Numbered from the whole stretch's first letter, positions 1-52,031 are shown. The stretch: DNA of 53,328 nucleotides, filler included, from Jimgerdemannia flammicorona (GCA_003990765.1; 2 parts of 2 records of this genome joined end to end with filler, not necessarily neighbours in it); one strand, 5' to 3'. Numbers and translations are program-made. The notes: a model not told the origin generated them from the sequence alone.

Positions 1-239
1 AAAATAATAAATTTAATATTTTTAAATATCTCTAATATAAAACTATAATATATTATAATATAAAATATATTTATTTAGAGTATTTTTATTTAAATAATTA
101 AAATATAAAATTTAATAAAATATTAGTTCAGTTTTGAAATATACTATATCAATATTCTTAGTTCTAAACAAAGTCTCATTCTAGACTCTGAATCTAATAT
201 CTACTATATTACTATATTTTACTATCATCTTCTTCACTC

Positions 240-1095
240 TCTTTCTTATCTCAATTACTATCACTAGATATCTTCTTTACTAGAAGCTGGACCATTCTTG
301 GGTCTTATCTTAAGTACTATACTATCAGTATCACTATCTCACTAAAAGTCAACCTAGTCTTCAAGGTCTTCTTCAATGGCCCTGTCTTCTTGAAACTTAC
401 CTCAACTTTCTCTAACCCTCTCAGGAACTTTACTGTAGCTATCTTAGTTATCTACTTTATAATTAACTCTAAAACTATCTTTGTTATCACTATTAGTTCC
501 TAAAAGTACAATATGATAATAAATTCCAAGATCAACTTCTTGAGTAATAGAGCCACTATCAGGCTTATCATACTATCTACCAGATCTATTTTTTTCTCAT
601 TTCATCTGCTCAGCCCTGTCATCAGCAGTCCTATCTGGATTTTTTTTCAGATCCTCTCATTATACTTCTATTAGCTATCACATCTTTACCCCCAACAGTA
701 GTCCTATTAGCTCCTATGCTCACTTTGCTTGCCATTGACTCACTAGATCCTCCAGTATTTACTATTCTCTTTGCTCTAGTCTTGTTAGCCTAAGTATCTC
801 TAGGCTAACTCTCTGTCTTCACCTTATTAGTAAAACTCACCAGCCTCTGCCTCCTACTACTCTTAACCAGTAATCAACTTCTACCCTACTCTTTTTATCT
901 ATTTCCACTACTGAAAAACTCTATCTCTATATTATAATCTCTTCTAACATATTGTCAGTCAAAGGCCCCAGATTTACCTAATTTAGTATACTTATTAGAT
1001 TATTTATTGATTGTTATATTTCTATTACCTCTTTTTAATAAACTACTCAAAAGTATATTGTGAGGTTTATATAATATAAATATTAGTAGAGAAAG
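240..1095 (-). mobile_element. Heavily decayed LINE relic (5' UTR and ORF1 start), same family as 45142-49956
   Basis: Reverse complement of ~990-1095 (ctttctctactaatatttatatt...) aligns by eye with the LINE 5' end at 45142 (ctttctctgctataatttacatt...). 240-960 matches ORF1 segments at ~39500-40230. Very TA-rich with no open frame. Confidence 0.75.
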
Positions 1096-1124
1096 ATATA
1101 GACTTCACTTTTTCTAGGTATTTT

Positions 1125-2760
1125 TACTGATCTATCTCTTCCAACTCCTTGGTAGCCAGCTCATTCATCATTATATTCATCTAGTATAAATCACTAATAT
1201 GTTTTTCACTCAGAGTTATTAGCCTCTTCTCTCAGCAAGATAGTATTAGTATATATCAGTACTAGCTGACTTATTTCACTTCTTCTCTGAGATATCTTGT
1301 AGCTCATCCTTCTCTACTCTGATTATCTACTCCCTTTTAACTATATCTAATACTCCAAACTGAACTCTGAGCATACTCCTTATCTCTATATTCTTTACAA
1401 ATCTCCTTTTATAAATATTATCTATATCAGATATTTCTTCTTCTTCTCTCAGACCTCAAGTATACTATTATTATAAAGTTGCTGATCTCACACCTCTCTG
1501 CTCACTGCCAAATCAACCTCCTTCTCTTCTACTCTATTACTAGTTCAAATACTTATCTTTATCTCTTCTGAACTCTCTTTTGTCCTTAGTGTCACCTTTT
1601 CTTTCAGACTAGTCAATAGATCCCTCTACTGTTTTCTTCTCTAAGCCTTCTTCTATAAGCCTTCTTCTATATTATCTTATCTATATAAATTCTCTTATTA
1701 TTTATTATCTTCAGATGCATCAAAGCTATAAAGTCTATTATACTATTATATATCTCTCTGCTACTCTACTAAGTTTCTCTAGAGCCTCTACCAAATTCTT
1801 CTCCTCTTTCTTACTATCTTTTATTCTTATCATCTTATAAATAAAGATATTCTATACTAACAATAATGGCCAATTTCTGGTTCTCTCTCTCTACAAGTTA
1901 GAGTCAAATATTCATATTTCTCATCCTGAATAAGATCTTCTCTCATACTCTGAATCTAATATCTATAACTTTACCATACTCTCTTATAATCTCCTCAATT
2001 CTTCTCCTTATTTCAACAGTCATTACTATAAGAACTCCTTTTATCAGAAGCTATACTACTCTTAGATCCTACCTTAGATACTGAGCCATTAATACTACTA
2101 TCTTATCAACTAATAACCTAGTTCTCATAGCCTCCACTAATGACCTCTTCTTCTCAAACCCTATCTTACTCCTCTCTAGCTCATATAGAAACTTCACTAT
2201 AGCTACTTCAGTTATCTAATTAGCAATTAGACCTAAGACCATCTTTATCATTACTACTAACTCCTAGAAGTACAGAGATACTATAAATTCTAATATTGAC
2301 TTTTTGAGTAATAAAGCTATTATTAAATCTATTATACTATCTACTAAATCTATCTTTTCTATATATTCCATCTGCTCTATCTTACTATCAATAGTTATAT
2401 TTGGATTTTTTTTCAGATTTATCCTAACTCTGCTATCAATAGTTATACTCTATCTCTCAGTAATAGTCTCTTCAGTTCTTACACTAGCTCCTCCAGTCAT
2501 TGATCCTTCAGTTCTCTCTATACTTATCATATCCTATTCCTCAGACCTACTATCTCAAATACTCTCAGACTAACTATCTATCTTTATCTTAGCAGTAAAG
2601 CTCATTAACTCCTACTCTCCACTACTCAGGTTGGATAGTTAATCTCTATTAGTTCTATTCTATCTACCAGTATCACCAAAAGAGCTCATCTCTAAGCCAC
2701 AGTTTCTCTTAATATATTGCTAGCTAAATGCTCCAGGTCTACTTAATTCAGCTTATTTAT
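1125..2760 (-). mobile_element. Second heavily decayed LINE ORF1 relic
   Basis: Collinear similarity to 38630-40250, e.g. ccaactccttggtagccagctcattcat vs cccaactccttagccaccatgttgttcat, and the shared tggattttttttcagat motif. Confidence 0.75.
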
Positions 2761-2771
2761 TAAAATACTTA

Positions 2772-3700
2772 TTTTTTTTTTTTTTTAATAAACTCAGAGT
2801 TTGGTAGATTTTTATTAAGAAAAAACCTAGACCATATAGACCAAACCTCTTCCCTACTCTCTCTCAAATACGATATCTCTATTAAATCTAGACTAGCTAT
2901 TGTCCAGCAGCTCAATCATACTAGGTACAGCAGAGCTTATAATAGCCTATATCTCATTCTATATACTATGCTCTTTCTATTATCAGAGAATAAGAAACTA
3001 TATACTAATAACTAAAGAAGTATATCTAAAACCTCAATATATATAAGACTATATATATCTGAGCCAATTTATATAGTCTTTACTACTATAAGTAGAGTGA
3101 CAGATAAAGAAAAACCTCTCTCAAAGTACAGAATGGTAGATAGAATCTGGTTTTCTCTAATGAGATAAGTAGAGAACTTATATATAAGATAAAAGAAGAC
3201 CTCAAATACTCTACTACTCAAGTCTATAGATCTTGATTATATTATTATATCAGCTCTCAGTTCTAGTTAAATATAGCTAAGATATCTGATCTAAATAATC
3301 TCAGACCTCCTAACTATCTCTAATAATCAGAGTCCAATCTTATATATTATCAAAAGTAGCTAAAAGTAATATCTACTATCTAACTACTCTATATCAATCA
3401 GAAGGTCCTACTGATATACATAGTACTCACCTCTGTCTCAATAACTATCTCTAGTCTAGTACTTAACTAATTTATTATAATTAATCTTTCTTTTATCTAA
3501 AATAGCTATCTCTTCTTCTATCTCAACTCCACTCAAAAAATAGTCACCTATATCAGAACTATACTTACTAAGAAGCTCATCAAAGCTCAGAGAACTTTAT
3601 AATAGATACTGAGAACCTATAGATAACCTATACTAATACTTAATATCTAAGATCAGCTGACTCTCTATATAGTCTATGATATATCAAGTTAATATCTTAT
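2772..3700 (-). mobile_element. Possible 3' end of another decayed non-LTR element (poly-A tail on minus strand)
   Basis: Poly-T run at 2772-2786 followed by CpG-free, strand-biased decayed coding-like sequence. Family not recognised. Confidence 0.3.
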
Positions 3701-4949
3701 TGATAATAGTAAAAGAAAGAAGATACTATACTAAAATAAATATATTTCAGATATAACTAAAGATATTAGAAACTGTGAAAAAGTAGAGAAAACACTAATT
3801 TAATATCAATTGAGAGGTAACTTATCATCAATACCTCTCTCTCACTACTCTGCAACAGATATAGTAAACCAATCTGAGGTAAAAGAAGTATAAGTTATGG
3901 AAAAGAGACTTGAAAAATTATCTACAAAATCTTATATATAACTGATAAGATAGTAGAGAAAGGAGTGATTAGAATACTTATTTATTGATATATATATTAT
4001 TAATATCTTTTTCTAGAAAATAGTATAAAAAGTATTAAAAGCTATTTATATAATATCAATTATACTGAAAAAAAGAGTATAGAGCTTGTATATTTAGTCT
4101 ACTTGTCAGACTAAGTTTGAAGATTTATCATTAAGTTCTAATAAAAAAACTTTACTTTGTTTGAAATATTTTAAAAATTTATCTAGAATAAAGTATTAAA
4201 TATTTTATCACTTTTTAACAAAGTAACTATTAGCTTAAGTTAATTTATATAACTATTCTATCTTATAATTTATCTTTATTAAGTTAGTATATTATAATAT
4301 AATAGTTTTATAATTTTATATTAAAAGTTATATTTCTTAAATAATTATATAATAATAATAATAAATATATAATTAAAAAATATTATTTTAAATATATATT
4401 TGCTCAATATATAAATATAATTAAATATAATTAAATCTTAAGTCTAATATTACTAACTATATATAATAAAATTTTAAATAGTTTAATATTATTTAATATA
4501 CTAATTTATAACTATAATATAAATTTTTTTATTTTTTTTTATAAAAGAATTTTTATTTTATATTATTTATTATAAAAATAAAATATAAGATCTTTTATAT
4601 TTAAATAATGATTAATTTTATTAATATATTTTATTTATAATTAACTATTATTTTATAAGTTAATGATATTATAGTCTATACTTTAATATATTTTAAAAAT
4701 ATAATAAATATATATATTATATATATTATAATAAGATAATAGAGAAATATATCATATTATTATCAAAATTGGTTATTATAATTTAACTATATATTATATC
4801 AGATACATTAAATAACTAAGACTGCTCTATTGTACTAATTTATATAAATAAACCAAATAGCAAAATAAGGGTAGAAAGTATTTCTAGTTAGTATATCATA
4901 TCAGAATTTGAGATTTATATTTCTAACAGAAATAATTAAATATTATCAG

Positions 4950-5745
4950 AAATAGTAATCTATAGTTAACTATATAGTAATTAGATAGTAACTAATTCTA
5001 TAAAATACCAGAAATAAGAGTGAATAAACCTCAGTCTAAAAATCAAAGTAAAAGCTAATTGTCTAATATACTTAGAAAGAGAAATCTGCCAAAAAGTCAC
5101 TACTAAAAAGTTGTGAGCTATTTTTTACTCTGGTCTATTTTTCAATATAAAGAAGAAGTCTATCTATACAAAGTTAGTCTGTATAAGATATATCTTTATA
5201 GTGAACTTAGTTTATATAAATAAACCAGTTTTTGACACAACTTTACTTACTTGTTATATTTTTGATTTATATACTAGATAAGCCTAAAGAATTTGAGAAG
5301 TCTGTTATATTTTAGTATACTTACCAGACTAAGTCTGAGTAATATTGCCAAGTAATCTACTATTAAAAAAAATCTATTATTTTTAAAAGAAGTTCACCAA
5401 TTCAGAAAGATTTTATATTATCTAAGTTATCTAAGAAGTTTGCTAATTCATAAAGAATCTATATCAATCTAGCAAACTACTGATTCAGGAAGAATCTATA
5501 TCTTCTGAGTTATCTACTTTATTCAAGAAGTCTACTGAAATCACTATATTACACCAGACTATCTAATTAGAAAAACTACTAAAATTATCTATTATACAAA
5601 TAAGAAAACTCACTTAAGAATCTAGTATTGTCTTTATATTAGAAACTATTGAACATTTTATTGCTTTTTAACAAAGTAACTAGATGTTCAAGCTATTTTA
5701 CAAGTAGCTTCAATCTTGTAATCTATCTCTATTGAGCTGATATAT
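4950..5745 (+). repeat. Dispersed non-coding repeat, copy A (other copies 40960-41650 and partial 4090-4300)
   Basis: Shared blocks gtgaataaacctcagt, aagttgtgagct, tactctggtcta, aatataaagaagaagtctatct and acaaagtaactaga...attgagct. Internal repeats of a tctacttaccagactaagtct-like motif. Confidence 0.8.
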
Positions 5746-6008
5746 TTTATTTAGAGGCTCAACTGGAAGATTTTTTTTAAATCTATAACCAATAGTCAAA
5801 CTAGATATATTTCATACAATATTAATCTCTATTACTATAGAAGAATGAGTTATTACTAGTATTTGAACAGGAAGAGAAGTAATTGTCTCAAGACTTGCCA
5901 ATTATCTAATATCTGAAGAATTCTAACCAGAAGTCAATATAGTACAAAATTCTCAACTAGTACTAACAGACTTATCACCAGAAGACCTGACCCAACCAGA
6001 TTAACTAG

Positions 6009-7544
6009 TGTAATGGTGACCCCAGAATGATGACATCAGTACAGGAGACAGCCTTTCCTTGCAAGCCACCAGATCGGAGCACAAGAAGATCATACGGTAT
6101 ATGAGATGAGTAATGATGACCAACTGTGAGTTATTGTGACCACAATATAAGCATCTTGAAGAATATAAAAGAAGGATCAAGAAACCACAGTAGCAGCAAC
6201 CAACAAGAACCACCAATCCCAAAATAGCTCAAAGACTTACCACAAATGAAATGCCTGCTGCCTGCCAAACCTCAAGGTCAAGGAATCATCAAGACACCTC
6301 AGTTGAAGAAAGGATGTTCTAAGACATCAGAAGAGCCATGGGGACCCACTCAAGAAGGACTCCTAGTATCAACCTGGGTACTGCAGACCCTTATTACTTT
6401 ATTCTCTACTGCTATGAAATAGAAACAAGGATCACCATTGCTACCGAATGCCTTCAAATGTGGCAGGAGTATGAAATAAGAAACCTCCTCTGCTGGGAGT
6501 TCCCACAGGCTAGTACTTAAGAGCTACAAGATGCCACTTCCATGGATATACGCGAAATAAGGATAGCTAAGAAGATCCATCAGATCTTCAGGCATGCACC
6601 ATGGTTGATCCCCAACTTAGAGTATGTTAGAGTCTCGGATTTCAGAGACCTGTCATCCTGCTGTATCAATACACTAAAAGCCAAGGTGGCTACAGAAGCC
6701 CAGTCCACCATCACCCTCAATAGTGAAGAAGTAGAAGACTTCTGACATCCCATCCTTCAGGACAATCCAGACCAATTCCTGCAAGGATTGATCTCAGTAT
6801 TCCAAGGCCCAAGCATCTAGGTTAGATCTCCCCAAGACCCCACATTTGTCTCCTATTTTGTGGAAGAGAACTATATAGACTAGAGAGCTCCAGATCTTGT
6901 TCCTGATTTCCTTGCCACCAAATGTGATGATGTCATTGGTGATGATGTCATCCCACATGACATCGACATATGCGAAGTATGTGAACTGCATGATGACAAA
7001 TTCACAGATCTCATCTCTTTCAGTGATGATGATGATGAAGCCCCTATGGTCCTGAACTTTCTGCTCTAAGTTCTTTATTATACTGGATAATGCCAGCACC
7101 GGTATTCTCATGTAACACTGGATAATGCCAGCACCAATATTCTGAGGTAATGCAGAATTGTTCCAGCACTGGTATTTTGATGTCACACTAAATAATACCA
7201 GCATCCTGAACCTGTACAACCATCAGTGCCAACCCTGGAACTTAGTAGTTTTAGTTATTGGAATTTATATTTAGCTTTATATCTTAGCAACCATTGAATT
7301 GTATTTTGTATAAATACCTCTCTTATTTCCTCTGAAATAAAGTCAGTCAAGTTCACCTATACACACTTCCTTGCAAGCAATCTAAGAGATAACAAGACAG
7401 TTAAAGATATGAAGTTTGAGAACTATAAGACCTTGGGAAGGTACTCCAATAAGAACTTGCTTATAACAAACTTGAGTTAGTCTAAGAGATATATCTTGAA
7501 GAGAATCTGGCATATTTGAAGGACTCAGTGACCACTATGTGACA
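6009..7544 (+). repeat. 5' LTR of element 1 (1536 bp)
   Basis: Starts TG and ends CA, followed by ACT+TGG. TATAAATA at 7309, AATAAA at 7336, ~35-bp tandem repeats at ~7082-7205. The first 186 bp recur after the PPT at 13244. Confidence 0.85.
6251..7069 (+). pseudogene. Decayed ~272-codon ORF inside U3 of LTR 1, homologous to the LTR ORF at 50141-51292
   Basis: Single frame from ATG 6251 to TAA 7067 with five internal stops (TAA 6320, TAA 6518, TGA 6743, TAG 6818, TAG 6881), all explainable by C>T/G>A. Acidic C-terminus. Motif matches to the 383-aa ORF. Confidence 0.75.
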
Positions 7545-7600
7545 ACTTGGTACCCATTGGCTAGTGATTCAAGATGAATCTCTCACTTACAAGCTGAAAA

Positions 7601-10600
7601 ATGAACAACCCCTACAACAACTACTCTGACTACCAGAGTCACCCCTGCAAGAATACAAGACAAGATGGAAATATATCCCCCCACATTCTATGGATATACT
7701 ACTGAAGAGTCAATTCTGACCTTCATTGAAGACTTTGAACAATTCACCACCATATAAGCCCTTGGTGTGGATGCACAATTGGCCCTTCTACCAGTCAGCC
7801 TTAGAGGACCTGCCAGAGACAAGTTCAATGCAGCCACCATTGCTGATGCTGGTACAGCCAAACTTGCCAACATGAAGGCCTTCCTCAGAACAACATATTA
7901 TATCAAAGAGATCAAGCAAGCTCTCAAGGACCAACTCAATACTATCTGTCAGAGACTTAGTGAAGATCCCAACTCATTCTATATCTGAATTTGCCACCAG
8001 ATTGTCTTGGCTGACTATGATGACTGCCTCAAGGAACAAATAGCAGATTCAACCTTCCTCAAAGGAGTTCACCCTGAAATTGCCCTAGCAATCTGGTCTA
8101 CCCCAGCTATACTGACCCTTGATCAGAAAGTGGTCTTTGTACAGAGATATTGGACTGCCAGACACCCTGCCGAACACTCAATGGAGAAAATAACTAGCAT
8201 CAAGATGGAGTCAACAAAGCCAACTAGTATCATACCTGCCATAGTTATAAACAGACAATCAACCCCACCTACCCCCAAGACAGTCAAAGCTGACCCAGTG
8301 GAAGAACTCACCAAGTAGTTTGCCAAGATGACTGCACACCTTGGTGATATTGTTAGAGAAGTCCAAAGCACCAACAGGAGACCAGTGCAGAGATTTGCAG
8401 CCACTACAGAAGAATGCAATATCACATGCTTCAGATGTGGAGAAGAAGGCCACTATGTAAAGAGTTGCATGACTGAAACAAGATGCAAAGCCCAACCAAG
8501 CAATGTTAGCAGAACTAGAGAACAAACCAATGCAGTAGTCATTGAGGAGATTGGTGACACTGATGATAAAGAATACTACAAGGAGCTTGAATTCTACCCT
8601 ACTACTGAAGGTACCAGAACCCAGTCCAAGCCCTATGACAAGAAGGGCAATAGCAAGCCAGTTGGAAGACCAAAGAAGACCCCAACTGTCACTATTCAAA
8701 GTAAGACCCAATCCGAGGAGATTGATCTAGACATAGAGTTAGATGAAGCTGCTTGCCAAATTATCGAAGGCACTACTCCAGTCTCAGGAGAAAGTGAAAG
8801 CAAGAAGGAACAGAAGCTGTACAAGACCAAGATCCACCAGTATGATATCTACAAGGACCTCAAGAAACAGAAGGTCAATGCCACTTTTGGACAGCTAGCT
8901 GAAGTTCCTGCCTTCAGACAGCAGTTGAGAGTAGAACTTGCAACTACTGCCAAGAATCAAGAGTACAAGATTGTAGAAGCTCACAATGTACAGGAAGAAT
9001 CTGAGAACTCAGATAAAGAATCCAAAGACCAGCACAAGACATCAGCCTATACCCTATGTCAGATTGAAGACTGTATCTTTGATGCTATCATTGATACTGG
9101 TGTTGGAGGATGCCTCATGAGCAAGAAGATAATTGACTGCCTAGGTTGGGACATTGAAGAGTCCACTAAGATGGTCTATGTCACAGCAGATGGTACACGA
9201 GCTACCCCCCTTGGCAAAATCTGAGAAGTCCCCATCAAGATAGGAGGAGCTACCATTCCAGTAGATGTGATTGTTACAAGTGCCACTAACTATAACATCC
9301 TCATTGGCAACCAATGGCTTCACAAGGCCAAGGCCATCATTGATCTCAATGCCCAGAAGATGCAGATTAACTATAGAGGAAGAAAGGTATGAGTCTCTAT
9401 CAATATCCACAAAGGAGTCCTACCAGACATGGAGGAAGGAGATGAAGAGGATACAGAGGTCTTCATATACTTAGTGAACAAGAACAAGAGCAAGACACCC
9501 AAGCTCACAGATGAGCAGTGGTACAACAAGATCATTGATGGCTATGCCCCTCAAGGAAGATGCCCCCATGGTACTAGGATGTACTGCTCCAAACACCTGA
9601 ATGACTGCTGGTCCTGTATCAGTGAAGTCAGGAAAATCCACCAATAGAAACATAAGCAAGAAGCCGCCGAAGCAAAAAGGAAAGCTGAAGAAGATGACCA
9701 GCCCCCAGAGCTTCAAGCTGACAGTGATGATGAGGAGGAACAAGAATCAGACATCATCCTTAAGGTCAAGAAGTTTCACTCTGAAGCCAAGATCCCAGAA
9801 TATAAGACTGAAGGAGCCATAGAAATGGACCTTGCCAGCATTCAAGATGCTACTCTCGAACCACAAACCACCACCCTACTTGGCACTGGAATTGGAGTCA
9901 AGTTACTAGAGAACTATGCCAGAATTATCAAGACCAGGAGCAGTCTGGCCAAAAGCGAAATCTCAGTTAAAGGAGGAGTAATTAACCCTGATTACACTGG
10001 CAAGATCTTCCTCATAGTCAGGAATCACAACCACACCACTCTCTTCGAAGTCAAGAAGTATGACAGGATTGGCCAGATGCTGATCCACGAAATCAAGAAG
10101 TCCAAGATCATTGAAGCCATTGAACTCATCAAGACCAAGAGAGGAGAACAAGACTTTGGATCTACTAGAAGAGGAGCCTATGCTGCCACCAAGATTACCA
10201 AACTTGAGCACAAGAAAGACAAGGACCAGAACAAGCACACATATATCATTGGAGAAAAGTTTCTCCTAGAGGAACAACTCCTCAAGATCTTGTACCAGAA
10301 CAAAGAAGTACTTGCTACAGACTTCAGAGATATCCACAATCAAGAACCCAAGTACTACCATGAAGTTGACACTAGTGATACCAAGCCCATCTACCAGAAA
10401 GTCAGACCCATACCACCTGCCTACAGAGAATGGCTGTGAGCAGAACTCAAGAAAATGGAAGAAGCTGGAATCATCAAGCAAGCTATCAGTCCCTGGGCCT
10501 CACCCATTGTCCTTGCCCTGAAGAAAGGAAGCAAGCCTGGAGAGTTTGTACCAAGACTCTGTATTGACTACAGGAAGCTCAATACCATTACCAAGAAGGA

Positions 10601-11690
10601 TAGGCAGCTCTTGCCAAATATTCAAGAGATTCTTACCACTCTTGGAAGTGAAGCCAAATACTACACTACCTTGGATCTGTTCTCAGGCTTCCATCAGATT
10701 GGTCTCACTCAAGATACCAGTGAGAAATCAGCCTTCATCACACCTGACGCCACCTATATCTATCTGCGAATGCCATTTGGAATGTGCAATGCCCCAGCAA
10801 GTTTCCAGTGAATGATGAACAGAGTCTTCAGCAATGAGATTGGAAAATGGCTCTTTGTCTATGTTGATGATGTGATTATCTTCAGCAACACTACATGGGA
10901 ATATATCAATCACATACAGCTAGCCCTCAAGAAGCTCAAGGAGCATGGCCTCTACATCAAGCCTAAGAAATATAAGTTTGCAGCTCAGGAAATCGCCTAT
11001 CTAGGACACCTCATCAACCAGACTGAAATCCACACAGACCCTATGAAGATCGAGGCTGTTGCAGCCTACCCAAGACCCAGAACAACCACAGAAGTCCACG
11101 CCTTCCTTGGACTGGCCAGCTATTACAGAAGATTCATCAAAGGATATTCCAACATTACAGTACCTATCTATGAGCTACTGAAGAAGGAAACCAAATTTGA
11201 ATGAACCAAGGAGCACCAAGAAATCTTCAATGAACTCAAGACCAGGTTGACCCAAGCACCTATCCTCAGAAGACCAGACTGGAACCTAGAATTCATCCTG
11301 CAGACAGATGCGAGTGCTATAGGACTTAGAGCAGTCCTAGCTCAGAAGAAAGATGGACATGAATATGTCATCTCTTATGCAAGCTGAGGTACCCATGGAG
11401 CAGAACAAAACTACAAGTCATGTAAGCTCGAATGCTTAGCAGTAGTTTGGGCAGTAGATAAGTTCCACTACTACCTAGCTGGAAAACACTTCACCATTCA
11501 AACAGATCATTCTGCTCTTGCCTGGCTATTTCACACACTGAACCTCAAAGGAATATATGCCAGATAGATCTACAGACTGCAAGAGTATGACTGTACTATC
11601 AAGCACCACTTAGGAAAGACCAACACCAATATCAATGCACTCTCAAAGATACTCTGAAACACCCCCATCAAGACTATTCAACATGAATAA
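7601..11690 (+). pseudogene. Gag-pol of element 1: gag, CCHC knuckle, aspartic protease, Cys/His module, dUTPase, RT, RNase H
   Basis: Same-frame ORF fragments: CFRCGEEGHYVKSC knuckle; AIIDTG protease; dUTPase motifs RSSLA, GGVINPDYTGKI and RGEQDFGST; RT SPWASPIV..CIDYRKLN..MPFG..YVDD; RNase H FILQTDAS..TDHSAL..NALS. Many premature stops. Start approximate. Confidence 0.9.
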
Positions 11691-12888
11691 GGAGCTATAC
11701 TATAGATTAATCAGCTACCTTGAGCAGTGGAAGATGCCCAACCACCTCGAACTCTGGACAATCACCATCATCAACTGGACTTGGAAATAGTTTGAACTAG
11801 ACAACACTACACTCAGAAAAGAAGGAAAGCTAGTAATACCTGAACACAAGAAGTATCAAGTAATGAAGGAAGTATATGAGCAAGGATACTTAGGAGGAAC
11901 CAATACATATGACAAAGTAAGAAGAATTATGTGGTGGCCCAAGATGGAAGAAGACCTGCACCAATTTGTCAAAGGGTGTGACAAGTGCCAAAAACAGAAA
12001 TAAGATCAGCAAGACCAGGCACTCAGGTCATCAATAATTGAGCCTATTCTCTTCCACCACATTGTAATGGATATCATTGGACCACTACCAGTAATACTAT
12101 CAGAAAACTGCTATATTATAGTTATTGTAAACCTCTTCACTAAATGGATAGAGGCAGGAGCATTACAAGAAGCCAATGCCCTCTCTATAGCCGACTTCCT
12201 GCACCAAGAAATCATCTGCCACTACAAGACACTGAAGCAAATCACAACAGACCACAGAATGGAATTTGTCAATAGATTCTACAAGATAATGTATCAGAAA
12301 TACAAGATCCAGCACATCAAGACCACCACATACCACTCTCAAGAAAATGGAGAGACAAAGAGAACTAATAAGACCCTCAAGAACATCCTAACAAAGATCT
12401 CAGAGACATATGAGAATTGGGATAACTATCTCCCAACTGCCCTCTCTGTTCTATGAGACATATGGTCACAGAGTACACACTTTACCCCAAGGGAGCTGCT
12501 CTTCGGAGAAGAAGATTCTGATGGAACCTCAGCCACAAATCTAGATCTAACTTGGAGACAGGTTGATGCAGAAATCCAGAGACTACACCAAATCAGGGAG
12601 AAGGCTGAAGATTATATCACTAAGTCACAAGTACTGATAAGGAAGAATGCAGAAAAGAATCACAAGACCCTAGAACCCATCCAAATTGGAGAAAAGGTTC
12701 TACTGTATTGAAATATGGTAGAAGTCTCATGGTCATGAAAACTGGAGCCTAAATGGGAAGGACCCTTCTATATACAAGATATCAAGGGAACTACCTTCTG
12801 GCTTAGAAAAATCTCAGAGACCATACTGCCTACTATGGTATATAGGAACAGACTCAAGAAGTACTATGAACCTATACAAGAGAAGTAA
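11683..12888 (+). pseudogene. Integrase of element 1 (own ATG, different frame from RT-RH)
   Basis: MNKELYYRLISYL..., zinc-binding region WWPKM..CDKCQK, core MDIIGPLP..FTKWIEA..ITTD..ENGETKR, and GPY/F-type KWEGPF. Stop at 12886-12888. Confidence 0.88.
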
Positions 12889-13243
12889 AATGTGATGATC
12901 GCCTGTGAGGTTCTAGTCCATGAATCATAACAGCATGTCCTGTGACCAGCAGGCTATCTGTCTGGACCATTCTCTAAAGGATACGGCATTAGCAACTACT
13001 CATCCATGAGACTTTTGAAGTTAGAGGAGTTCGAACCGTCAACTGATTGGTCAAGATCAGAATCAGACCCTTGCTCTATATAAAGAGAGTGACTCTTCAC
13101 CATCATGCCAAAATACAAAGAGAAGATGCCAGTCCATAAATATCACTTTTCAACCCCTTGCCAGAGGTTATGAGATCAGCAAATTTTTCAGGACTGGACC
13201 AATAAATAAGGATGCTCAGGAAGATCCTTATTCAGAAGGAAGA

Positions 13244-13429
13244 TATAATGGTGACTCCAGAATAATAACATCAGCACAGAAGATAGCCTTTCCTTGCAAG
13301 CCACCAGATCAGAGCACAAGAAGATCATACAGTATATGAGATGAGCAATGATGACCAATTGTGAGTCATTGTGACCACAGTACAAGCATCCTGAAGAATA
13401 TAAAAGAAGGATCAAGAAACTGCAGTAGC
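13244..13429 (+). repeat. Truncated 3' LTR of element 1
   Basis: 186-bp direct repeat of 6009-6194 with 17 differences, all transitions. The terminal TG has mutated to TA. Confidence 0.9.
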
Positions 13430-14169
13430 TAAGTATATTATTAGTATATCTTATAGATAGAATTTTCTTCTTTATATATCTACTAATAGTATTAATATTT
13501 ATATAATTAATTAGTCTTAATTCTACTATATATATTAAATAAACTTTTATAGTTAAGGAACTATTAATTACTTATAAAGTACAGCAAACAGTAAGATAAT
13601 ATTACTATAGAGTTGAAATCAGTAATAATTTATAATAGTGATTCTACTATAGGTAGTGAGCAAATTTATATAGTAGTTAATTTCTATAGTATATCATACT
13701 TTCTGATATTATGATTCTTGTCTTACTAATTAATCTGAATACTAATTTTAAAGAAGGAGTAGTCTGTATATATAATTATACTAAAATTCTCATTCTTTTA
13801 AATTTTTGTAATAATTCTTTAGTACTTGTTCACTGGTATCAATTTGTTTATTATAAACTCATTCATAATTTTGATATTTTTAATTTAATTCTACTATAGT
13901 ATATAGAAGATATAGTTTATATATATTATTTCTGATTTTAAAGCAAAGAGAAAGAGTGATAATTATTTCTTTATTAGGATATGTCTGATTTAGTTATATA
14001 GTATCTATAGTATTTTATATTCTTCTTCTGATATATAGTCACTATATTGGCTAGAGCTCTTAGTTATTTTCAAAATATTAGTATAATATTTCTTTATTAG
14101 TAGGATAATTCTTATAAGGCCTTTTAATAATTGGTAATTTTGGAAATAAATTGAATAATGCTGAGTCTG

Positions 14170-14305
14170 TTCTGTATAACTCAGCAGTTATATGAATAAA
14201 ATCAGTCTTTGAATTATTGCTCTTATGTGACTTGGCAGTTATATAAATAATGGTCTATCTTAAATTGCTACTTTTATATGACTTAGCAGTTGTATAAATA
14301 TCAGT
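14170..14305. repeat. Degenerate ~51-bp tandem repeat (about 2.7 copies)
   Basis: A tatgactt(a/g)gcagttatataaata-like core recurs at ~14176, ~14227 and ~14278. Confidence 0.6.
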
Positions 14306-15442
14306 TACTTGTTTCAAATAGAGTACTATTTTAATGACTTACTGTAGTGAGTTTCTTATTTAGTAAGCATATAGTCCTCAGGACTTTAAAACTACAGTCT
14401 TAATGTCTTTAGCAAATCTATATAAAATCTGTACTAAATTTGGACAAATTGTGCAGTAAAATACTATATCCAGAATTTTACATAATATCTAACACTATAT
14501 TTTCACTTTATGCAAATTCTTTACAAAACTTTATACTGATTATATACAGCATTATCTTGTATATAATATTTATATAATTATCCAGTACTAATTTAGCACA
14601 AAATAATTCTTTGTAGAATCTATACCAAATTTTGCACCATATTTAAGTCAGCACCAAATCTGATACTGGATCTTGCATCCAATATTTTCTGCACACATTT
14701 TGTACAAAGCTCTGTACTGAGTATATACTGAATGCAGATTCCACACACACTATGCATAAGAATATTTTTCAGATGTTGGCCTGAAGAACGTTTGTTTGAT
14801 CTGCCTGGCTTAAAATCACACGAAGGGATCGAAAATTGGGGATATTGTTAGACGAACAACACGGAATGGAGCTCAGCCACGTAACCGACGGTCACCCAGT
14901 GCCGCTTCGTTTTCTTGGAGACATGTTGAAAATTTTGTTAGATCAGTTAATAATGAGCGTCACGAATCGATAAATGCCTGGATTACTTGAACACTGCGCT
15001 TCGAATGGATTAGTTGATGGCATGAAACGTTTCATTTCATTTACATCACCCTCCTCTTCAGAGCCTTGGCCTACATTATCGGCATCGCTTGTATAAACTT
15101 TGGCAACGAAGCTGGCTAAACCTCCGAAAATGCGAGGAAGACCCAAATCTCGGAGACTGGCGTCCCAACATTATTGAGAAAGGCATAAAATTCTATAACT
15201 TGCATCGCCAACTAGATGACTTCCTTGACAACCAATTTGGAAGTCGAAGGTATTGCCCAACAATGCAGAAATTCAATTCTACATGGCACTCCACTATGGT
15301 GGTTGTAAGTGATCTATCAAAGCAAATTGAGTGAGCTACAGCGAACCGATATTTGGAGGCGCAGTTAATTTTGCTGCATGTTATCAGGGGGGGTGCGTTG
15401 TAATTACCTGAGGGCAGCAGAGGTGCTCCTTGCGTCACACTT

Positions 15443-16442: not shown

Positions 16443-18869
16443 TCAATCTCTATTGGCTTGAACAGAGGTACTGAGCTTCACTTTCGGGAGAAACAGACTG
16501 GCCACAAACGTGAGCACGGCGAATACAATATTGATTGAGAATGTCCATTGAATGGCGTGGAAGTATGCCGTGACCACGATATCCTTGTATTCGGGCGGGA
16601 GAGTTCGGATCGCGTCGACCGATTTGCGAGCAGTGTCAATGATCTTGGTGATGTGGAAGAGAGAAATAAGTTCATCAAACTCAGTGCATGAAAACTTGGT
16701 AGCGCAAAAGGACATTCGGATTTGCAAGATGCGGCGATTTTTAACGTCAAAAGAATGAGCCGTTGATGGTTTGTACTCACCAATTCCGCATTCGGACCAT
16801 GGATGTTTGCAATCAGCTCGGATTTCAAAAGAGATTGGAAAGTAGCGGAGCATATCGATATACCCAATACGCCTCCAGTCGACCGGAACAAGTATGACAT
16901 TGACGCAGCCACTGCAATATCTACCAAAGCGAATCAACAAATCCTGTGAGTCAAAATGATTACTGAGAGTAACAACAAATGAGTAGATTTGAATAACTTC
17001 ACTCCGACGACCACGAACCTTTTGGCTCGACACTGGCCAACATCGCAATTAGCGTGGTGGTCAGTCCCGATCCGAACCCGAATCCGACGATCACCAGCGG
17101 GGCAGAATATTGCCAATTGGGACCGCGCTCCAGGTTCCATGTCTTGAGCCCGCATGATCCCACAATTGTCAAGAAGAAGACAACCCACGTCAGCCCCCGG
17201 TACGTGCCGGTGCGCGTCATCAGTAGTCCCGCTGAGAGAGACCCGATCGCTGCGCCGACCACCTGGGGGACAAAGGCCAGGCCCGCTTGGGACGCGCTGG
17301 TGCCGTAGACAGCCTGTGTGTGCCAAGGGGAAAGGAGGAATGGGACCGAATTGGTGAGATCACTAGTGCAGTTGTTTTGGTCCAAAACGGAGATTTGATA
17401 ACGGTGAAGGGCGAGATATGTACCTGGAAATACAGCGGCACAAAGAAAATCATGGCATACGAGTTTATGCTCCCAAAGAAATTTGTCATAGACACCACGA
17501 ACGGAGCCCGCGCGCTGAACACTCGCCAAGGCAAGATGGGCTCACTTGCGACCTTGGCCTCGATCACTGCGAATGCTACCAGCATTCCAAGGCCGCCAAC
17601 AAGGCACGCGATGACGACAGGCGAATCCCACGACATCGTGTTGCCGCCCCATGACGTGCCCAAGAGCAGGCCCGTCACGCTCAGCACGAGAGATCCGCTG
17701 CCGAAGTAGTCAATCCGCTTAAGCTTGGTGGAGAGAGATTGGGTTGTGGATTTCGTGTTGTAATTGGTGATTTGTGTTGTGGTGATGAAGAAGCAAATGA
17801 CCAGCAGAGGGAGGTTGATGTAGAAGCAGTAACGCCAGCTGAAGTAATCGGCGATCCAGCCTCCGAGAGGGGCGCCAATAAGACTGGCGCTCTGGAAGAG
17901 GTATATCGGGTGAAATCAGTTTTCGTTATCGGTTCGAATTCGTTTCACCGGAGTCTTTCGAGAATCCGTAGTTGACATACATACCGCCCATGCAAGGTTG
18001 CCTATCCCTTGGAACTTTCCCCGCTGACGCATCGATACGACGTCACTCATCACGACGGTGCTCATAGTGTTCAGTCCGCCTAAAGGGATAAGCCATATTC
18101 ATTCACTATTTAGAATTATTGGATAACATTTAGACACGATGACAACTATACTTACCACCACCGAGGCCGGCAATGGCCCTCGCTATGACTAGCGACCAGA
18201 TGTCGGTAGCCGCACCGCATGCGGCTGAACCGATGAAAAACATGGAGGTCGCGAAGAGGAGGGTGGATTTGCGACCGAAGATGTCCGAGAGACGGCCATC
18301 TAGACATAACGGGTGGAAGGTGTATTTGAGACAAATAAATTCCTAACGCCGAAAAATACCAATTTAACGAATCTTCAAAGAAGGTTGGAGAGAATGGGGA
18401 AGCTTACACAGTGGTTGCAGAGCAGTGAAGCTGAGCAAATAGCTGGTGACGATCCACGAGACCTGGTTCGACGCGTGGAACTCGCTGCCAATCTTGGCAT
18501 AGATGGTCGACACAATTGAGCTGTCCAGCGCCGCGAGGAAGACACCGACCCAGAGTCTTTGGTAATGAAAATTTGTGAAGAGGGCGATTTAGTTTGAGAG
18601 AGAAGAATTGGATAGTCCCCGAGCATTGACAGTCGTGGATCCCATACGCAAACTACGGCACGCTTAGCCCTCGAGTTTCCTCTAGACCAGACAAAACCAA
18701 ATCTCATCACAACCTACCCTGTCATGATGATCCAAACGTTCTCGACGGTTTCCATTTCCACCTGAGCCTTTGAACCCGCAGAGGGCTCCTGCTGGGTAGC
18801 CTGATAATCGCCATCCTGACGCTTCTGCCCGTCAAGCAATGGTTTTCTCGCGTCTTCTATTGATGACAT
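16443..18869 (-). CDS. Multi-exon MFS transporter, DHA2 / Vba-like 14-TMS drug or basic amino acid:H+ antiporter
   Basis: ATG at 18869 (MSSIEDARKPLL...). Exons encode LWVGVFLAALDSSIVST, VSWIVTSYLLS, DIFGRK, AIAGLGGG, WRYCFYINLP, FFVPLYFQ, YLFRSTGGVLGISI and C-terminal FLPKVKL..RD*. GT-AG introns separate them; not all exon boundaries were resolved. Confidence 0.92.
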
Positions 18870-26525: not shown

Positions 26526-26615
26526 TGGGATATGATCGATTTTGTGGGATGAGGGGAAGGGAATGCTAGTGTGAAGGGCACTGCCAGTGGTGAGAAGTAG
26601 TGAGAGGTGGGGGGG

Positions 26616-26715
26616 NNNNNNNNNNNNNNNNNNNNNNNNNNNNNNNNNNNNNNNNNNNNTTAATTAATTAANNNNNNNNNNNNNNNNNNNNNNNNNNNNN
26701 NNNNNNNNNNNNNNN
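26616..26715. other. Artificial assembly spacer: 44 N + TTAATTAATTAA + 44 N
   Basis: Symmetric 100-bp N block with a central palindromic six-frame stop linker. Confidence 0.95.
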
Positions 26716-29700: not shown

Positions 29701-31172
29701 CAGACTGGTGATCTGTAGATTCTTCGTCTGACTCCCTTCCCTGATGAGATAGTGTATCCTCGTACTGACTAGGTCCTTCAAAGAGGATATCAGTCTCTGG
29801 CTGAGTTGATGGGCCTGCTCCTTGTTCAGCAGTAGGGGATGGTTGGCCTGCTTGCTCGTTCTCATACCTAGTTATGGCAGAGGCATAGTATACATACAAC
29901 TAGCCTGTAGTAGAGGGAGGTCTTGGTTGGGGTGTGGTGATATCTGTCAGAGGCAATCCACTCGGCAGCTGCTTCTCTTGCAGCAGGGGGTGTAATATAA
30001 TCTAAAAAATCCTGAGTGGCTGCAACAGTAGATTCTGGGGTCCTAGTGGTTCCAATGTGTCCTTGGAGAAGTTCGTAGAACCTACGGTGGCTAACAATAT
30101 TCCTAAGTCCTGGGTGGTATGTCCTAAAGATCTGGTATAGATCCTTGTAAGCCTGGTCAATTACAAGCTAGTGGGTCCTTGGGTCTGTAGTTTCCTGGTA
30201 CCACCTGGTCCTAATAGCAAGGGCTTCTCTGGCTCTGGTTTGAGGATCCACAGTTGTTCCTGGGGGTTACTCCTGTCCAAGGTTGGTCTTGTTCCAACTT
30301 CAGGAGTGTGTTCTTTGGTGCCTTCTTGGCTGGTAATCCACTGCTACCAAGTTGTAATAACTCTCACTTCTATCCCTCTCTTATCTTTTGGATAATTAGA
30401 GAAGTGGACTATTACTTAGGAACTTAGTACACAATGTGTATCAAGAAGCCTTCAGTTTGAGGAAGCGCTCGCTTAAAGTAGTTGTAGCAGCAGTACCTTA
30501 TCTTTCAAAGGTCTTTCTGATTTGCCTTCTATTTCAAAGGTCTTTCTCTTGTGCCCTATTTCAAGGGTCTTGTTCTTTGCTGTGCACAGACTGAATTCGC
30601 CTTGGAATTCAGGTTCAATGGGTTTACTTAAGTCTTTGGGGATTTATATACTGGTCTCAGTTCTGGCAGAAGTTAGCTAGACTTCTGGAGTTTAGTCAGA
30701 AACACTAGAGTCACTTAGATGTCATTACTAAGACTCAGGGGAATGTGTGTGTGTGGGGGGGACTTGATTCTTGTATCAAGGACTGAACTAAAAACTGCTT
30801 TATTTCGGATGGAAACTGGGGGGTATTTATACAAGTTGGTCTGCGATTTCTGACTAAGTATGAGTGACTAATTTGGTAACTATAATGAGGTTTGTGATCC
30901 CAACCTTTGTCAGGTGGTTTTTGGCAAAAACAACTTTGTGATCAGGACCTCAATTACTAGGCAATGATCAGCAACTGTGGCAACTGTTGCTGCGGCGCCG
31001 ATTGATGGGGATAAGCTGGATATCATTTTTCGCGTCGTTTCGCATTGTTCGTTCGTTCGTTATTCATATGTCACGCTTCGTTCGTATGATGACGTCATCG
31101 CTCGTCGGGTCACGTGATCGTTCGTCGTTCGTCGTTCGTCGTTCGTCGTTCGTCGTTCGTCGTTCTATTACA
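26716..31172 (-). mobile_element. Ty3/Gypsy LTR retrotransposon 3 (5' half; RT of Tf/chromovirus-like type), inserted in LINE ORF1
   Basis: LTR 30353-31172 bounded by TGTAATA/TATTACA. PBS TGGTAGCAGTGG (30338-30349, minus). Gag IPTFSG..ANQW; knuckle CFICKKAEHISVKYP; dUTPase DAGYDLYS..GGGVVDQGFTGEI..RGKKGFGST; protease [35 protein letters not shown] running into the gap. Confidence 0.92.
30353..31172 (-). repeat. 5' LTR of element 3 (820 bp)
   Basis: 7-bp terminal inverted repeat. Minus-strand TATAAATA at 30824-30831 and AATAAA at 30799-30804. LINE sequence resumes at 31173. Confidence 0.85.
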
Positions 31173-40255: not shown

Positions 40256-40959
40256 CCAATTTGAGGATATATTCTTAAGACATTTCTTTAAAGAATGGTA
40301 TAAAAGTAGGTGATATTTATTTATGTAATATGAGATATATCAGGAAGAGCCTTGCTGTCCATCTGCTTCTTATATATATTCTCATAGCTCTTTTGATATT
40401 AGAGAATATCTAATATTAGACCAATAGATCTGGGTGGTTTCTTGATCTTGCTATTTGGTGGGTGGTAGATATTTTATTTTGTAGTGAGTTTCTTATTTGT
40501 GGATAATATCTTATACTTCTTTTTGATACTTCTTTTATATCCTAAGGATCTTCTTCTTTGGTCCAGAGGTAGGGTCACCTGATTTGGAGTAGTATACTGC
40601 TGAGATCATTATAAGTCACATGAGTTTAAATATAGATTATCTTCTGGTCAAGATGAGTCATAGTTGAGTTACAATTTATAACAAGAGGCTTATGAAGTCT
40701 GAGTAGTCTCCTGGCTTTTGATGTCATTAGTTTCTAAGATATCATTATATTATATATATTATAATTTATATAAATAACTAGATGTACTAAATTAGATATA
40801 TTGATTTTATCTTAGCTGGAATACTTATTTCAACTAGAACACTCATTTCAACTAGAATACTCATTTTAAGTAAAATACTCATTCTATAGGGAATAATTAT
40901 TTTACATAGAAATAAGTAATCATACCTTCTCTAAAATAGCCTTATTGTATACATATTCT

Positions 40960-49956: not shown

Positions 49957-52031
49957 TGTAAGCACACAACCTCCAAGCCACCGAAATTATACATCACCCT
50001 CTGAACAAAGCCACTGAAATTACACACGACCTCCGAACAAATCTGGAAATCACCTGCTTGATCATGAAGCTGAGTCAAACCGAAGTCACAGCGCACAAAG
50101 CTGAGTCAATACAAAGTCATGAAACACAAGATCTACACAAATGGAACCTTACCAATCAGGACCAAATGCATATATACTGAGCACCAAGACGCGTCGAATC
50201 AAAGAACCAAAACAAACAACAACCACAACTTCCAAATATACAAACATGACCACTGAGATCTACAACCGCATCCGTGCTGACATTTGGAATGCCATTGTCA
50301 ACCGAGCTACACCCCCTCTGCCCCTCATGAATATCCATAGCCTAGCACTCCTCTACTTCGTGGAAGCCCGATGGAATGCCCTGAACATGCTTAGTGAAGC
50401 CCACCGAATCGGACAAATCTCAAGCTACTACCAGATTGGCCGCCTCCTAGAAGACATGGTCGAACACCACTATGATACAGACATCACCCAGATGTCTCAA
50501 CACCAGAAGCTCATCGCTTGCAAACATCGAGAACTCTTCTATGAGTACAACACCTTTATTCCCCGCCTCCGAGTTACTACCAGCGAAATGGTTGCTACCC
50601 TGTCCTATGGCCAAATCGATGACATGATACAAGAAATCAACCACAAGTACCTCGAGTATGTCAAAACTACAGACAGAACCTTTCCACACCCTGATGACCA
50701 CATTCTACAAATGCCTCAAGTTGGATATGCCATGAAGGACGTCTACGATATAATCCACTTCGACGAAGATGAAGCAGAAGACAATGATCCCTCGGATACC
50801 AACATGACCTCTAGTCAAGGATCTCTGCCAACCCTGATCACTCCACCAACCTTGCCGATGAACTTACAACAGTTCATAACTGCATACGAGACTTATTGGG
50901 ACAATGACCACTGGCATGAATACCAACCCGTGTTCACCCCCGACTACTTCAACTACAATGAAGAGACCGGAGAACACAACCTGTACCTTCAGACAACCCT
51001 CGAGATTGAACCAACCACTCCACCACCCAAGTACGAGCGACTTGAACCACAGCCGCCATCTTACTACAATCTCATGACTCATAGTGCTGTAACCTATAGA
51101 AGGTATACAGACAGTGAATCCGATGAAAGCGAAGACAGTACACCCATTCTTCGCCCACCAACACCTTATCCAGCATATGAAACAGACGATGCTATCCTGT
51201 GGAATGGAGATGAAGTCCCAATGTATTACTACCTTAGCCAACAAGGAGAAGTAATCCGCGAACCACTCTTCCTAGATGACTACTTCATCTGAGATGATGC
51301 AATCGATGGTGATGTCATCGAGGACTACCCTGATAGCGCCTAAACCTATAAATAGTCTAGCAGTCATAATATAGATAGATTAGCCTTATACAACATGACT
51401 GTGAACTGACTCAGCAGTCAGATGATCTCTTGACATGTCAGATCACACTTGTACTACGTGACTGCATTCCGACTCAGCAAGGCACTTAGTGCTACATCCA
51501 TATCTAGCATAGTCTAGATAGCCCCTCACTAGTATAAATACCCCCTCCCCCAGACCTCAGAATCTCAGACTCAAACAGACTTGAACAATCTGAATGCAAC
51601 TCCTGAGCACTTTCCCACAATACCCCTTTATACAAATACTCCTAGTACAGCAATATCATGAATAGCAAATAAACCTATTTTATAACCCACAAACCACTCT
51701 TAAGTAAATCCGCTCCCTGTTAGGTCCTACTTCTAATCCTGTCACGAAATTTCCTAATTGGGTATTGTCTGCAGCGATACGCCAATTCAACTAAGCTGGT
51801 CTTAGTTTCTCGAACTTCCTGAAATACGGAAAATCCTGAACATCCAGAACTAGTCCAAAAAAGGACTTTGGTTGAGACGTCAACCCGATCTTGAAATCAA
51901 TAAGCGTAGAGGACGTACTCTATATGAAATTGATCTTGATCATAAGAAAACGGTCTTCCAGAATATCCAGAACTTCTAGAAAACCCTTCCAGAACTACGT
52001 AACGGTCACCCTAAAAAGTAACCCTCTTACA
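49957..52031 (+). repeat. 5' LTR of element 4 (2075 bp)
   Basis: 6-bp terminal inverted repeat. Starts exactly where LINE homology ends. TATAAATA at 51533, AATAAA at 51668, followed by ACT+PBS. The second LTR is not in the window. Confidence 0.8.
50141..51292 (+). CDS. LTR(U3)-encoded protein of unknown family, 383 aa, helical-looking N-half and acidic/Pro-rich C-half
   Basis: Uninterrupted ORF lying wholly inside the LTR, upstream of the TATA box. The TGA may be a mutated CGA, which would extend it to the TAA at ~51343. Confidence 0.8.
   Translation: MEPYQSGPNAYILSTKTRRIKEPKQTTTTTSKYTNMTTEIYNRIRADIWNAIVNRATPPLPLMNIHSLALLYFVEARWNALNMLSEAHRIGQISSYYQIGRLLEDMVEHHYDTDITQMSQHQKLIACKHRELFYEYNTFIPRLRVTTSEMVATLSYGQIDDMIQEINHKYLEYVKTTDRTFPHPDDHILQMPQVGYAMKDVYDIIHFDEDEAEDNDPSDTNMTSSQGSLPTLITPPTLPMNLQQFITAYETYWDNDHWHEYQPVFTPDYFNYNEETGEHNLYLQTTLEIEPTTPPPKYERLEPQPPSYYNLMTHSAVTYRRYTDSESDESEDSTPILRPPTPYPAYETDDAILWNGDEVPMYYYLSQQGEVIREPLFLDDYFI

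Follow-up and report, generated by a model that had tools for sequence, protein, structure and literature searches.

A protein-coding frame located within a long terminal repeat (LTR) is known from mouse mammary tumor virus (MMTV), whose sag frame of about 300 codons is, in the part of the source available, housed upstream of the promoter within the LTR, so that both proviral ends carry it (PMC2118998). The accessible sections of two further sources describe additional open reading frames (ORFs; ORF3 or aORF) in the bdelloid elements Juno, Vesta, and TelKA as lineage-specific genes with modular gain and loss beside gag and pol, their functions being varied or unassigned, cover extra ORFs in plant Athila-like elements and in fungal gypsy elements drawn with an "add. 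ORF", and report that some elements hosting such ORFs also have a dUTPase (PMC5408684; PMC2864245). Here, we describe ORF-A, a frame found in element 1, a Ty3/gypsy retrotransposon of the soil fungus Jimgerdemannia flammicorona (GCA_003990765.1), and compare it with ORF-B, found in element 4 of the same window; the window is the whole stretch of DNA analyzed, comprising 53,328 nucleotides including filler, with 2 parts of 2 records joined end to end.

We assign a probability of roughly 0.6 to the reading that ORF-A derives from a real accessory gene, restricted to its lineage and carried by a dUTPase-bearing Ty3/gypsy retrotransposon of this fungus, and that C>T and G>A changes have since degraded the copy. 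A preliminary description of the same DNA had gone further, proposing that ORF-A and ORF-B are homologous and represent one conserved family of genes in the U3 (unique 3') region of the LTR, with modular swapping between lineages; the pairwise, hidden Markov model (HMM), and profile-profile comparisons reported below provide no sequence basis for that proposal. In the excerpted text of its source, PosPlaTy3-5 of Postia placenta has a dUTPase between protease and reverse transcriptase (RT) (PMC2864245), and the dUTPase occupies the same position in element 1 and in a minus-strand gypsy element of the window (26.7-30.4 kb); a few elements of basidiomycetes are reported to be organized in this way.

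ORF-A, its decay, and its relatives

6251..7069, plus strand: ORF-A, interrupted by five in-frame stops and read as the pseudogene of an orphan accessory gene
50141..51343, plus strand: ORF-B, 383 codons to a TGA at 51290-51292, with similarity to P0003 continuing 16 codons further to a TAA at 51341-51343
40366..40564, minus strand: heavily mutated fragment resembling 6138-6357 (the ORF-A leader and about its first 35 codons), found by tblastn and blastn

The frame of ORF-A extends from an ATG at 6251 to a TAA at 7067-7069 and contains 273 codons read from 6248, in agreement with the single frame of about 272 codons first proposed. It is interrupted by TAA at 6320-6322 and 6518-6520, TGA at 6743-6745, and TAG at 6818-6820 and 6881-6883, and these five stops align with Q, Q, W, R/Q, and W, respectively, of its relatives, each being a single C>T or G>A change away, so that their description as transition-type stops was correct. 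A clear consensus of the relatives differs from ORF-A in 40 columns, five of which are the stops; 26 of these departures are single C>T or G>A changes (11 of them at CpG sites), and the remainder comprise 3 reverse transitions, 8 transversions, and 3 columns that need more than one change. ORF-A in this window is, as judged from its sequence, a decayed pseudogene. The strongly transition-biased and partly CpG-located decay in the window suggests methylation-linked mutation of repeats or a process resembling repeat-induced point mutation.

The relatives of ORF-A (itself designated P0002) are known from environmental assemblies. A word-seeded search of 5.8 billion protein clusters returned five relatives among 280 candidates, with E values of 4e-29 to 5e-121 and identities of 57-80%, all of them from short environmental contigs; a profile search (6 matches among 5746 candidates) added P0026, and P0011 was found as a cluster mate, giving a total of seven intact or partial relatives (P0004-P0008, P0011, and P0026). 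Significant full-length similarity with a shared start and stop unites P0002 with P0004-P0008, P0011, and P0026. The 271-residue P0005 begins with MPAA and ends with LNFLL, exactly as does the frame in the window, and the ending LNFLL or LNILL is found in five sequences of the family, although several indels separate their tails. Variation is almost absent from a central stretch of about 75 residues, and the intact relatives differ from one another at about 20% of residues in pairwise comparison, with zero stops. Overall, these features support the view that the ORF-A family is a real orphan accessory gene and that ORF-A and ORF-B each derive from a maintained coding frame. The preliminary description had taken protein-level conservation to imply selection; what is supported is a maintained frame within each family, and not homology across the two.

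The frames might have nothing to do with a gene, being open merely through base composition, or the DNA might be conserved as regulatory LTR sequence. The coding strand is indeed A-rich and stop-poor, and U3 is regulatory DNA. However, the ORF-B frame was open in 0 of 20,000 shuffles, each of the other five frames contains 7-26 stops over the spans of ORF-A and ORF-B, and the relatives hold the frame across indels. In addition, 7 of the 14 best-supported differences listed among copies of ORF-B are synonymous, compared with 33% expected, and only 1 of the 14 falls at codon position 2; the ratio is the same for gag (5 of 10), it being noted that these counts cover the best-supported differences listed and that 547 further differences lie outside the listing. 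The sequencing runs listed comprise 22 rows, all of them Logan contigs and mostly from soil metagenomes, which carry no start, end, or expression information; no RNA run holding the sequence is listed. We regard the absence of any gene as very improbable.

A second trace of ORF-A may be present in the fragment at 40366..40564, which matches residues 1-35 of P0005 in tblastn (40% identity, E 0.042) and is 59.7% identical over 221 nt in blastn; a transition-tolerant alignment contains 80 identical positions, 34 transitions, and 13 transversions. This fragment sits in an AT-rich block next to a long interspersed nuclear element (LINE), and a translated search found no element-1-like body adjoining it. 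At the start of ORF-A itself, another frame of about 58 codons (6246-6422), with its ATG 5 nt before that of ORF-A, overlaps the beginning of ORF-A in a different frame.

Element 1 and the extent of its LTR

about 6009-13429, plus strand: element 1, Ty3/gypsy, with CCHC gag, protease, dUTPase, RT, and integrase, all stop-interrupted
6009..7544, plus strand: proposed 5' LTR of element 1 (TGTAATGG ... GTGACA), 1536 nt
6164..6171, plus strand: TATA-like TATAAAAG, 87 nt 5' of the ORF-A ATG, kept in the 3' copy, read from the sequence
7082..7203, plus strand: enhancer-like tandem array with 3.5 copies of a 35-nt unit, 3' of ORF-A and 5' of the TATA block
7308..7341, plus strand: putative core promoter block GTATAAATACC ... 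GAAATAAAG, common to the LTRs of the other two gypsy elements
7548..7560, plus strand: run TGGTACCCATTGG starting with TGG and resembling a primer-binding site (PBS)
7545..13243, plus strand: internal region with gag (CCHC), protease, dUTPase, RT, and integrase, from Pfam and the ORF list
8319-9224, plus strand: zf-CCHC and Asp_protease_2 (Pfam)
9648-10439, plus strand: dUTPase (Pfam)
10440-11204, plus strand: RVT_1 (Pfam)
12004-12456, plus strand: rve (Pfam)
13234-13243, plus strand: purine tract AGAAGGAAGA, directly 5' of the 3' LTR copy
13244..13429, plus strand: 3' LTR copy, 186 nt only, followed by AT-rich DNA

Element 1 has the gag with a CCHC knuckle, the aspartic protease, and the order of RT before integrase of a Ty3/gypsy element, together with direct terminal repeats and a purine tract preceding the 3' repeat. 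The segment 6011-6194 is repeated at 13246-13429 with 91% identity, right after the purine tract, and all 16 of the 16 differences between the two copies are transitions, so that identity in a purine/pyrimidine code is 100%. Searches by blastn in this code yield many short chance matches, and they were used only for the 3' LTR copy, the 40.4-kb fragment, a 27-nt shared block, and the TATA block. The start of the element 1 LTR is secure on this sequence comparison. Its end is placed by the succession of ACA, AC, T, and the TGG-starting PBS-like run; the window contains no tRNA gene, so the PBS-like run at 7548-7560 is named by its sequence form alone. Comparison of the AT-rich DNA on either side of element 1 for continuity revealed an internally repetitive array on both flanks, by which the limits of the insertion cannot be fixed.

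We consider it likely that ORF-A lies in the U3 region of a 1.5-kb LTR (6009-7544), starting 242 nt past the LTR start and ending 239 nt short of the TATA block at 7308. This long LTR is favored because the 7308 block is common to the LTRs of the other two gypsy elements: it contains an 11-mer identical to 51532-51542 in the element 4 LTR, and its match to 30835-30797 (minus strand) scores 32.8 bits, which is the top control match and exceeds all 200 shuffles. It is also favored because the 11-mer ACAACTTGGTA, spanning the LTR end and PBS of element 1, is identical to the one ending the element 4 LTR, and because an LTR of 186 nt would have no CA end, no TGG-starting primer site, and no room for R and U5. 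The portion 6195-7544, of which no second copy was seen in the window, is thus assigned to the LTR by inference. Of the earlier placement of both frames in LTRs, the part concerning ORF-B is secured by confirmed LTR ends, and that concerning ORF-A is likely, with the reservation that the 3' copy ends 57 nt short of the position matching the ORF-A start.

Several observations weigh against the reading of ORF-A as an LTR-borne accessory gene. No Pfam family matches ORF-A or ORF-B at E <= 1, so no function is indicated; PDB sequence profiles give no match for family A and two matches at E 0.15 for family B; in the ESM Atlas there is no usable match for P0001, and P0005 has only matches at <=0.83 with TM <= 0.33; and the AlphaFold2 models of both families are unusable, with a mean predicted local distance difference test (pLDDT) of 35.9 for family A (6 rows) and 32.6 for family B (3 rows), so that no function can be taken from structure. 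Protein databases take in open frames only, which inflates the apparent intactness of the ORF-A relatives, and no locus for relatives of either ORF was confirmed in metagenome, viral, and prokaryote contig collections. In addition, the 3' LTR copy matches 6011-6194 only and then gives way to AT-rich DNA like that of the 5' flank, and because this copy is short, this particular locus is more economically explained by a short LTR followed by ORF-A in the leader.

According to that account, the LTR would measure only about 186 nt (6009-6194) and ORF-A would lie between the 5' LTR and gag. No additional deletion is then required, since the 3' copy ends at 13429 and the DNA that follows (13434-13533) resembles 4298-4399 (69%), part of the AT-rich array that is also found 5' of element 1. 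However, the last bases of such an LTR would be GTAGC instead of CA, those after it would not begin with TGG, and its sole TATA-like site would be located 24 nt from its end. The 7308 TATA block, moreover, is homologous to blocks inside the element 4 LTR, and the TGG-starting run at 7548 is preceded by an ACAAC-T spacer that recurs in elements 3 and 4. On balance we regard a leader ORF behind a short LTR as rather unlikely, and the U3 placement of ORF-A is preferred in what follows.

ORF-B, its relation to ORF-A, and the surrounding window

49957 onward, plus strand: element 4, gypsy, running off the window within gag
49957..52031, plus strand: 5' LTR of element 4 (TGTAAG ... CTTACA), 2075 nt, both ends confirmed by junctions in other copies
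51532, plus strand: TATA block of the element 4 LTR, which, like ORF-B, lies between the confirmed LTR ends
52035-52046, plus strand: PBS-like TGGTAGCAGCGG after the element 4 LTR
about 26.7-30.4 kb, minus strand: dUTPase-bearing gypsy element (element 3), dUTPase at 28119-28613
30353..30990, minus strand: LTR remnant of the third gypsy element, without an ORF, with a TATA block at 30832-30822 and a PBS-like run at 30349-30338, its upstream end abutting a LINE
6923..6952, plus strand: 30-nt block common to the element 4 LTR (51290-51319), encoding DDVIGDDVI inside ORF-A

In other copies of element 4, a purine-rich tract lies immediately 5' of the same TGTAAGC start and the contigs diverge just past 52031, which supports the location of ORF-B in the LTR, upstream of what is predicted to be the LTR promoter. 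The 383-residue ORF-B (50141-51292) starts 184 nt past the LTR start, and its relatives are 65% and 94% identical to it. The TGA at 51290-51292 is aligned to an arginine in P0003, and beyond it the two remain similar in frame over 16 codons, up to a stop that both possess. ORF-B in the window has therefore probably been slightly truncated by a late nonsense change in an ancestral frame of about 400 codons. P0010 (E 2.4e-4) was treated as spurious, being a tandem-repeat protein in which six stretches fall on one short segment. At the 5' edge of the same LTR there is a 33-nt tandem repeat of 2.1 copies (49975-50041), and two TGAGTCA sites (50071-50077 and 50102-50108) are found upstream of ORF-B.

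The three gypsy elements of the window, namely element 1 (plus strand), the minus-strand element, and element 4 (plus strand), differ in their mutual relatedness. Gag of element 4 shows no detectable relation to that of element 1 (E 0.64), as had been claimed, and the claimed kinship of gag between elements 3 and 4 is confirmed (E 1.8e-21); the RTs of element 1 and the minus-strand element are 41% identical. Element 3 had also been said to possess a short LTR without the ORF: upstream of its TATA block no ORF is present, although this side adjoins a LINE and the LTR start is therefore not verified.

The similarity of ORF-A and ORF-B, originally perceived by eye, does not rise above chance at the level of sequence. 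BLASTP of one against the other gives an E value of 1.7. In Smith-Waterman comparisons with ORF-B, the real score is reached in 104 of 1000 shuffles for ORF-A of the window, 641 for P0005, and 723 for P0004, the local alignments of the intact relatives lying at or below the shuffle mean. The collinear blocks and the ungapped 30-mer of the original alignment are likewise not confirmed as exceeding chance: no other ungapped block of the window copy scores higher than the 30-mer, but its score of 33 is reached in 33 of 300 shuffles, and with the intact relative P0004 the score falls to 25, reached in 214 of 300. The HMM of family A against ORF-B is equaled or exceeded in 420 of 2000 shuffles and that of family B against P0004 in 348 of 2000, no score being reported for P0005. 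When P0003 or the read-through ORF-B is compared with family A, z is <= 1.5 in 8 of 8 pairs, and the best local alignments of ORF-A and ORF-B switch registers within the acidic tail.

Profile-profile comparison is the test in which the by-eye register reappears, being returned twice by hhalign (over 108 and 53 columns), with P values of 0.061-0.095 and a probability under 1%. As a control, shuffling the columns gave a score at least as high as the real one in 8 of 150 profiles, and reversal of the profile gave a higher one (21.5 vs 18.8). The AlphaFold2 models are too poor for a comparison of folds.

Resemblances of another kind are nevertheless present. ORF-A and ORF-B have the same orientation relative to their own LTRs and a near-equal geometry, the distance from LTR start to ORF being 242 nt for ORF-A vs 184 nt for ORF-B and that from ORF end to TATA 239 vs 240 nt (192 nt with read-through). 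Both proteins have a basic N-terminus and an acidic-aromatic tail, the net charge of the last 90 residues being -16 to -18, which bears out the acidic tails noted earlier, and neither has a hydrophobic segment, the highest hydropathy over 19 residues being 0.59-1.14. The 30-nt block at 6923..6952 matches 51290-51319 with 80% identity in blastn (E 0.009), near the 3' ends of both ORFs, where DDVIGDDVI corresponds to DDAIDGDVI; its score is matched by 5 of 200 shuffles and by 3 of 38 real control windows. Three occurrences of the core of this block, GATGTCATC, are found in 53 kb, where 0.6 would be expected (6029-6037, 6944-6952, and 51311-51319), all of them in the two ORF-bearing LTRs. Because the copy at 6029-6037 lies on the other strand and outside any ORF, the shared block may be a site in the DNA and not a motif in the protein, and GATGTCATC may represent a transcription-factor site.

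These observations bear on two opposing accounts. ORF-A and ORF-B could descend, with divergence, from a single ancient family of U3 genes that was inherited with gypsy lineages or exchanged among them and was lost from the third element. The shared orientation and geometry, the charge layout, the repeated hhalign register, the 30-nt block, and the TATA block and LTR-end/PBS 11-mer common to both LTRs would agree with such a history, and the signal may have drifted past detection because even RT is only 41% identical and an accessory gene may evolve faster. However, every score is at shuffle level, the reversed profile outscores the real one, registers compete in the acidic tail, and GATGTCATC also occurs outside the ORF, so that the shared block may have no meaning for the protein; shared ancestry of ORF-A and ORF-B is therefore somewhat doubtful in our view. 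Alternatively, two unrelated genes may have arisen separately, each by capture or de novo birth within its own lineage's long U3, as U3 tolerates insertions. The lengths of the two frames differ (273 vs 400 codons), the element whose gag is closest to that of element 4 shows no ORF, no test gives significant similarity, and independent modular gain of extra ORFs is documented, in the portion of the source available, for bdelloid LTR elements (PMC5408684). Two independent origins would nonetheless leave the matching geometry, charge layout, and 30-nt block to coincidence or convergence, and no donor gene for either ORF was found among the 5.8 billion clusters and 1.84 billion representatives searched, so this account is held tentatively as a possible one.

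Other features of the window complete its description as eukaryotic and fungal, with decayed retroelements alongside host genes as judged from Pfam; no Rfam family was found across it.

31000-36312 (plus strand), 36330-40200 (minus strand), and 44489-49956 (plus strand): LINE-like copies, RT domain found
1-6000, 13430-14800, and 40200-44400: AT-rich blocks, GC content 0.12-0.33

The three LINE-like copies are 70-77% identical to one another and have an extreme strand GC skew of about 0.45-0.5; two of them are arranged tail to tail, one adjoins the third gypsy LTR, and another adjoins the element 4 LTR. The AT-rich blocks have repeats in common (4956-5336 with 40954-41365 and 5622-5749 with 41522-41651). 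Two host genes are listed on the minus strand at 23985-26525 and 16443-17915, the first encoding a homeodomain protein with a TRF2/HOY1 PH-like domain and the second a major facilitator superfamily (MFS)/TRI12-like transporter with apparent introns. A run of N (26615-26716), either masked or unassembled, interrupts the RT of the minus-strand gypsy element and adjoins the homeodomain gene.

Possible mode of action and comparison with known systems

If ORF-A is located in U3, every new insertion would receive the gene at both of its ends through reverse transcription, and solo LTRs would retain it. The TATA-like site at 6164 might drive its separate transcription, with polyadenylation directed by the LTR's own AATAAA at 7336, which lies downstream of ORF-A in the proposed LTR. 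Because the 6164 site is kept in the 3' copy and the AATAAA follows the frame, a self-contained mRNA of about 1.1 kb is plausible, and we consider the odds of such separate transcription to be about even. The product would be a protein of about 270 residues with an arginine-rich start, a helical core, and a disordered acidic-aromatic tail; the low-confidence models likewise consist of helices followed by disorder. Because this layout resembles that of many transcriptional activators and adaptors, one may guess, as something unlikely but worth stating, that the product acts in trans to regulate either the expression of the element or its silencing by the host. It is more doubtful still that, in analogy to the 3' accessory transactivators or silencing antagonists of retroviruses, fungal Ty3/gypsy elements of this clade house fast-evolving U3 genes for trans-acting regulators, with ORF-A and ORF-B as alleles of one slot that have diverged or been exchanged. 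If this were true, each insertion and each solo LTR would constitute a separate expression unit for the factor.

A layout of this kind recalls Tas/Bel1 of foamy viruses and other retroviral transactivators encoded at the 3' end, which are small nuclear proteins with an acidic activation region whose genes overlap U3, have their own internal promoter, and act on the LTR. ORF-A might work in such a way, the likeness being one of layout only, with no sequence or structural link.

Among fungal Ty3/gypsy elements, those bearing a dUTPase that were named for comparison are PosPlaTy3-5 of Postia placenta, elements of Phanerochaete, and Tmt1 of Tuber. The available part of the source mentions no LTR-resident ORF for PosPlaTy3-5 (PMC2864245), and the accessible portions of the reports on Podospora crapaud (PMC10787394), Talaromyces (PMC12037069), and Blumeria (10.64898/2026.05.04.722472) do not deal with ORFs inside LTRs. 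The full-text literature searched, from which many subscription journals and supplements are absent, contains no description of an LTR-resident ORF for fungal elements. In the sections available, additional ORFs are placed before gag or in the interval from pol to the 3' LTR, none being described inside an LTR, and the described types (env-like, GDSL, and DEDDy) have recognizable domains (PMC5408684; PMC2864245), unlike ORF-A and ORF-B, which have none. Neither of the two frames lies between pol and the 3' LTR; they start 242 and 184 nt, respectively, past the LTR start, the distances already given.

It should also be noted that two ORFs in the same slot with the same charge layout yielded a by-eye alignment that was convincing and yet failed the shuffle controls, which is a caution for comparisons of this kind.

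MMTV sag remains the closest described counterpart in terms of placement, as it shares with ORF-B, and probably with ORF-A, a location in the LTR upstream of the promoter. However, MMTV is a retrovirus of vertebrates and its Sag a membrane glycoprotein, whereas ORF-A and ORF-B belong to fungal Ty3/gypsy elements, have no Pfam match and no sequence relation to it, and, with a maximal 19-residue hydropathy of 0.59-1.14, lack the features of a Sag-like membrane-anchored glycoprotein. Overall, ORF-A is a dead copy from a real family of orphan accessory genes that is probably LTR-borne, and its homology to ORF-B is not demonstrated. Extra genes of LTR retrotransposons are known but normally lie between pol and the 3' LTR, and a gene within the LTR, recalling MMTV sag, would double at each insertion and outlive its element in solo LTRs, which would change the way in which dosage, silencing, and domestication are modeled.

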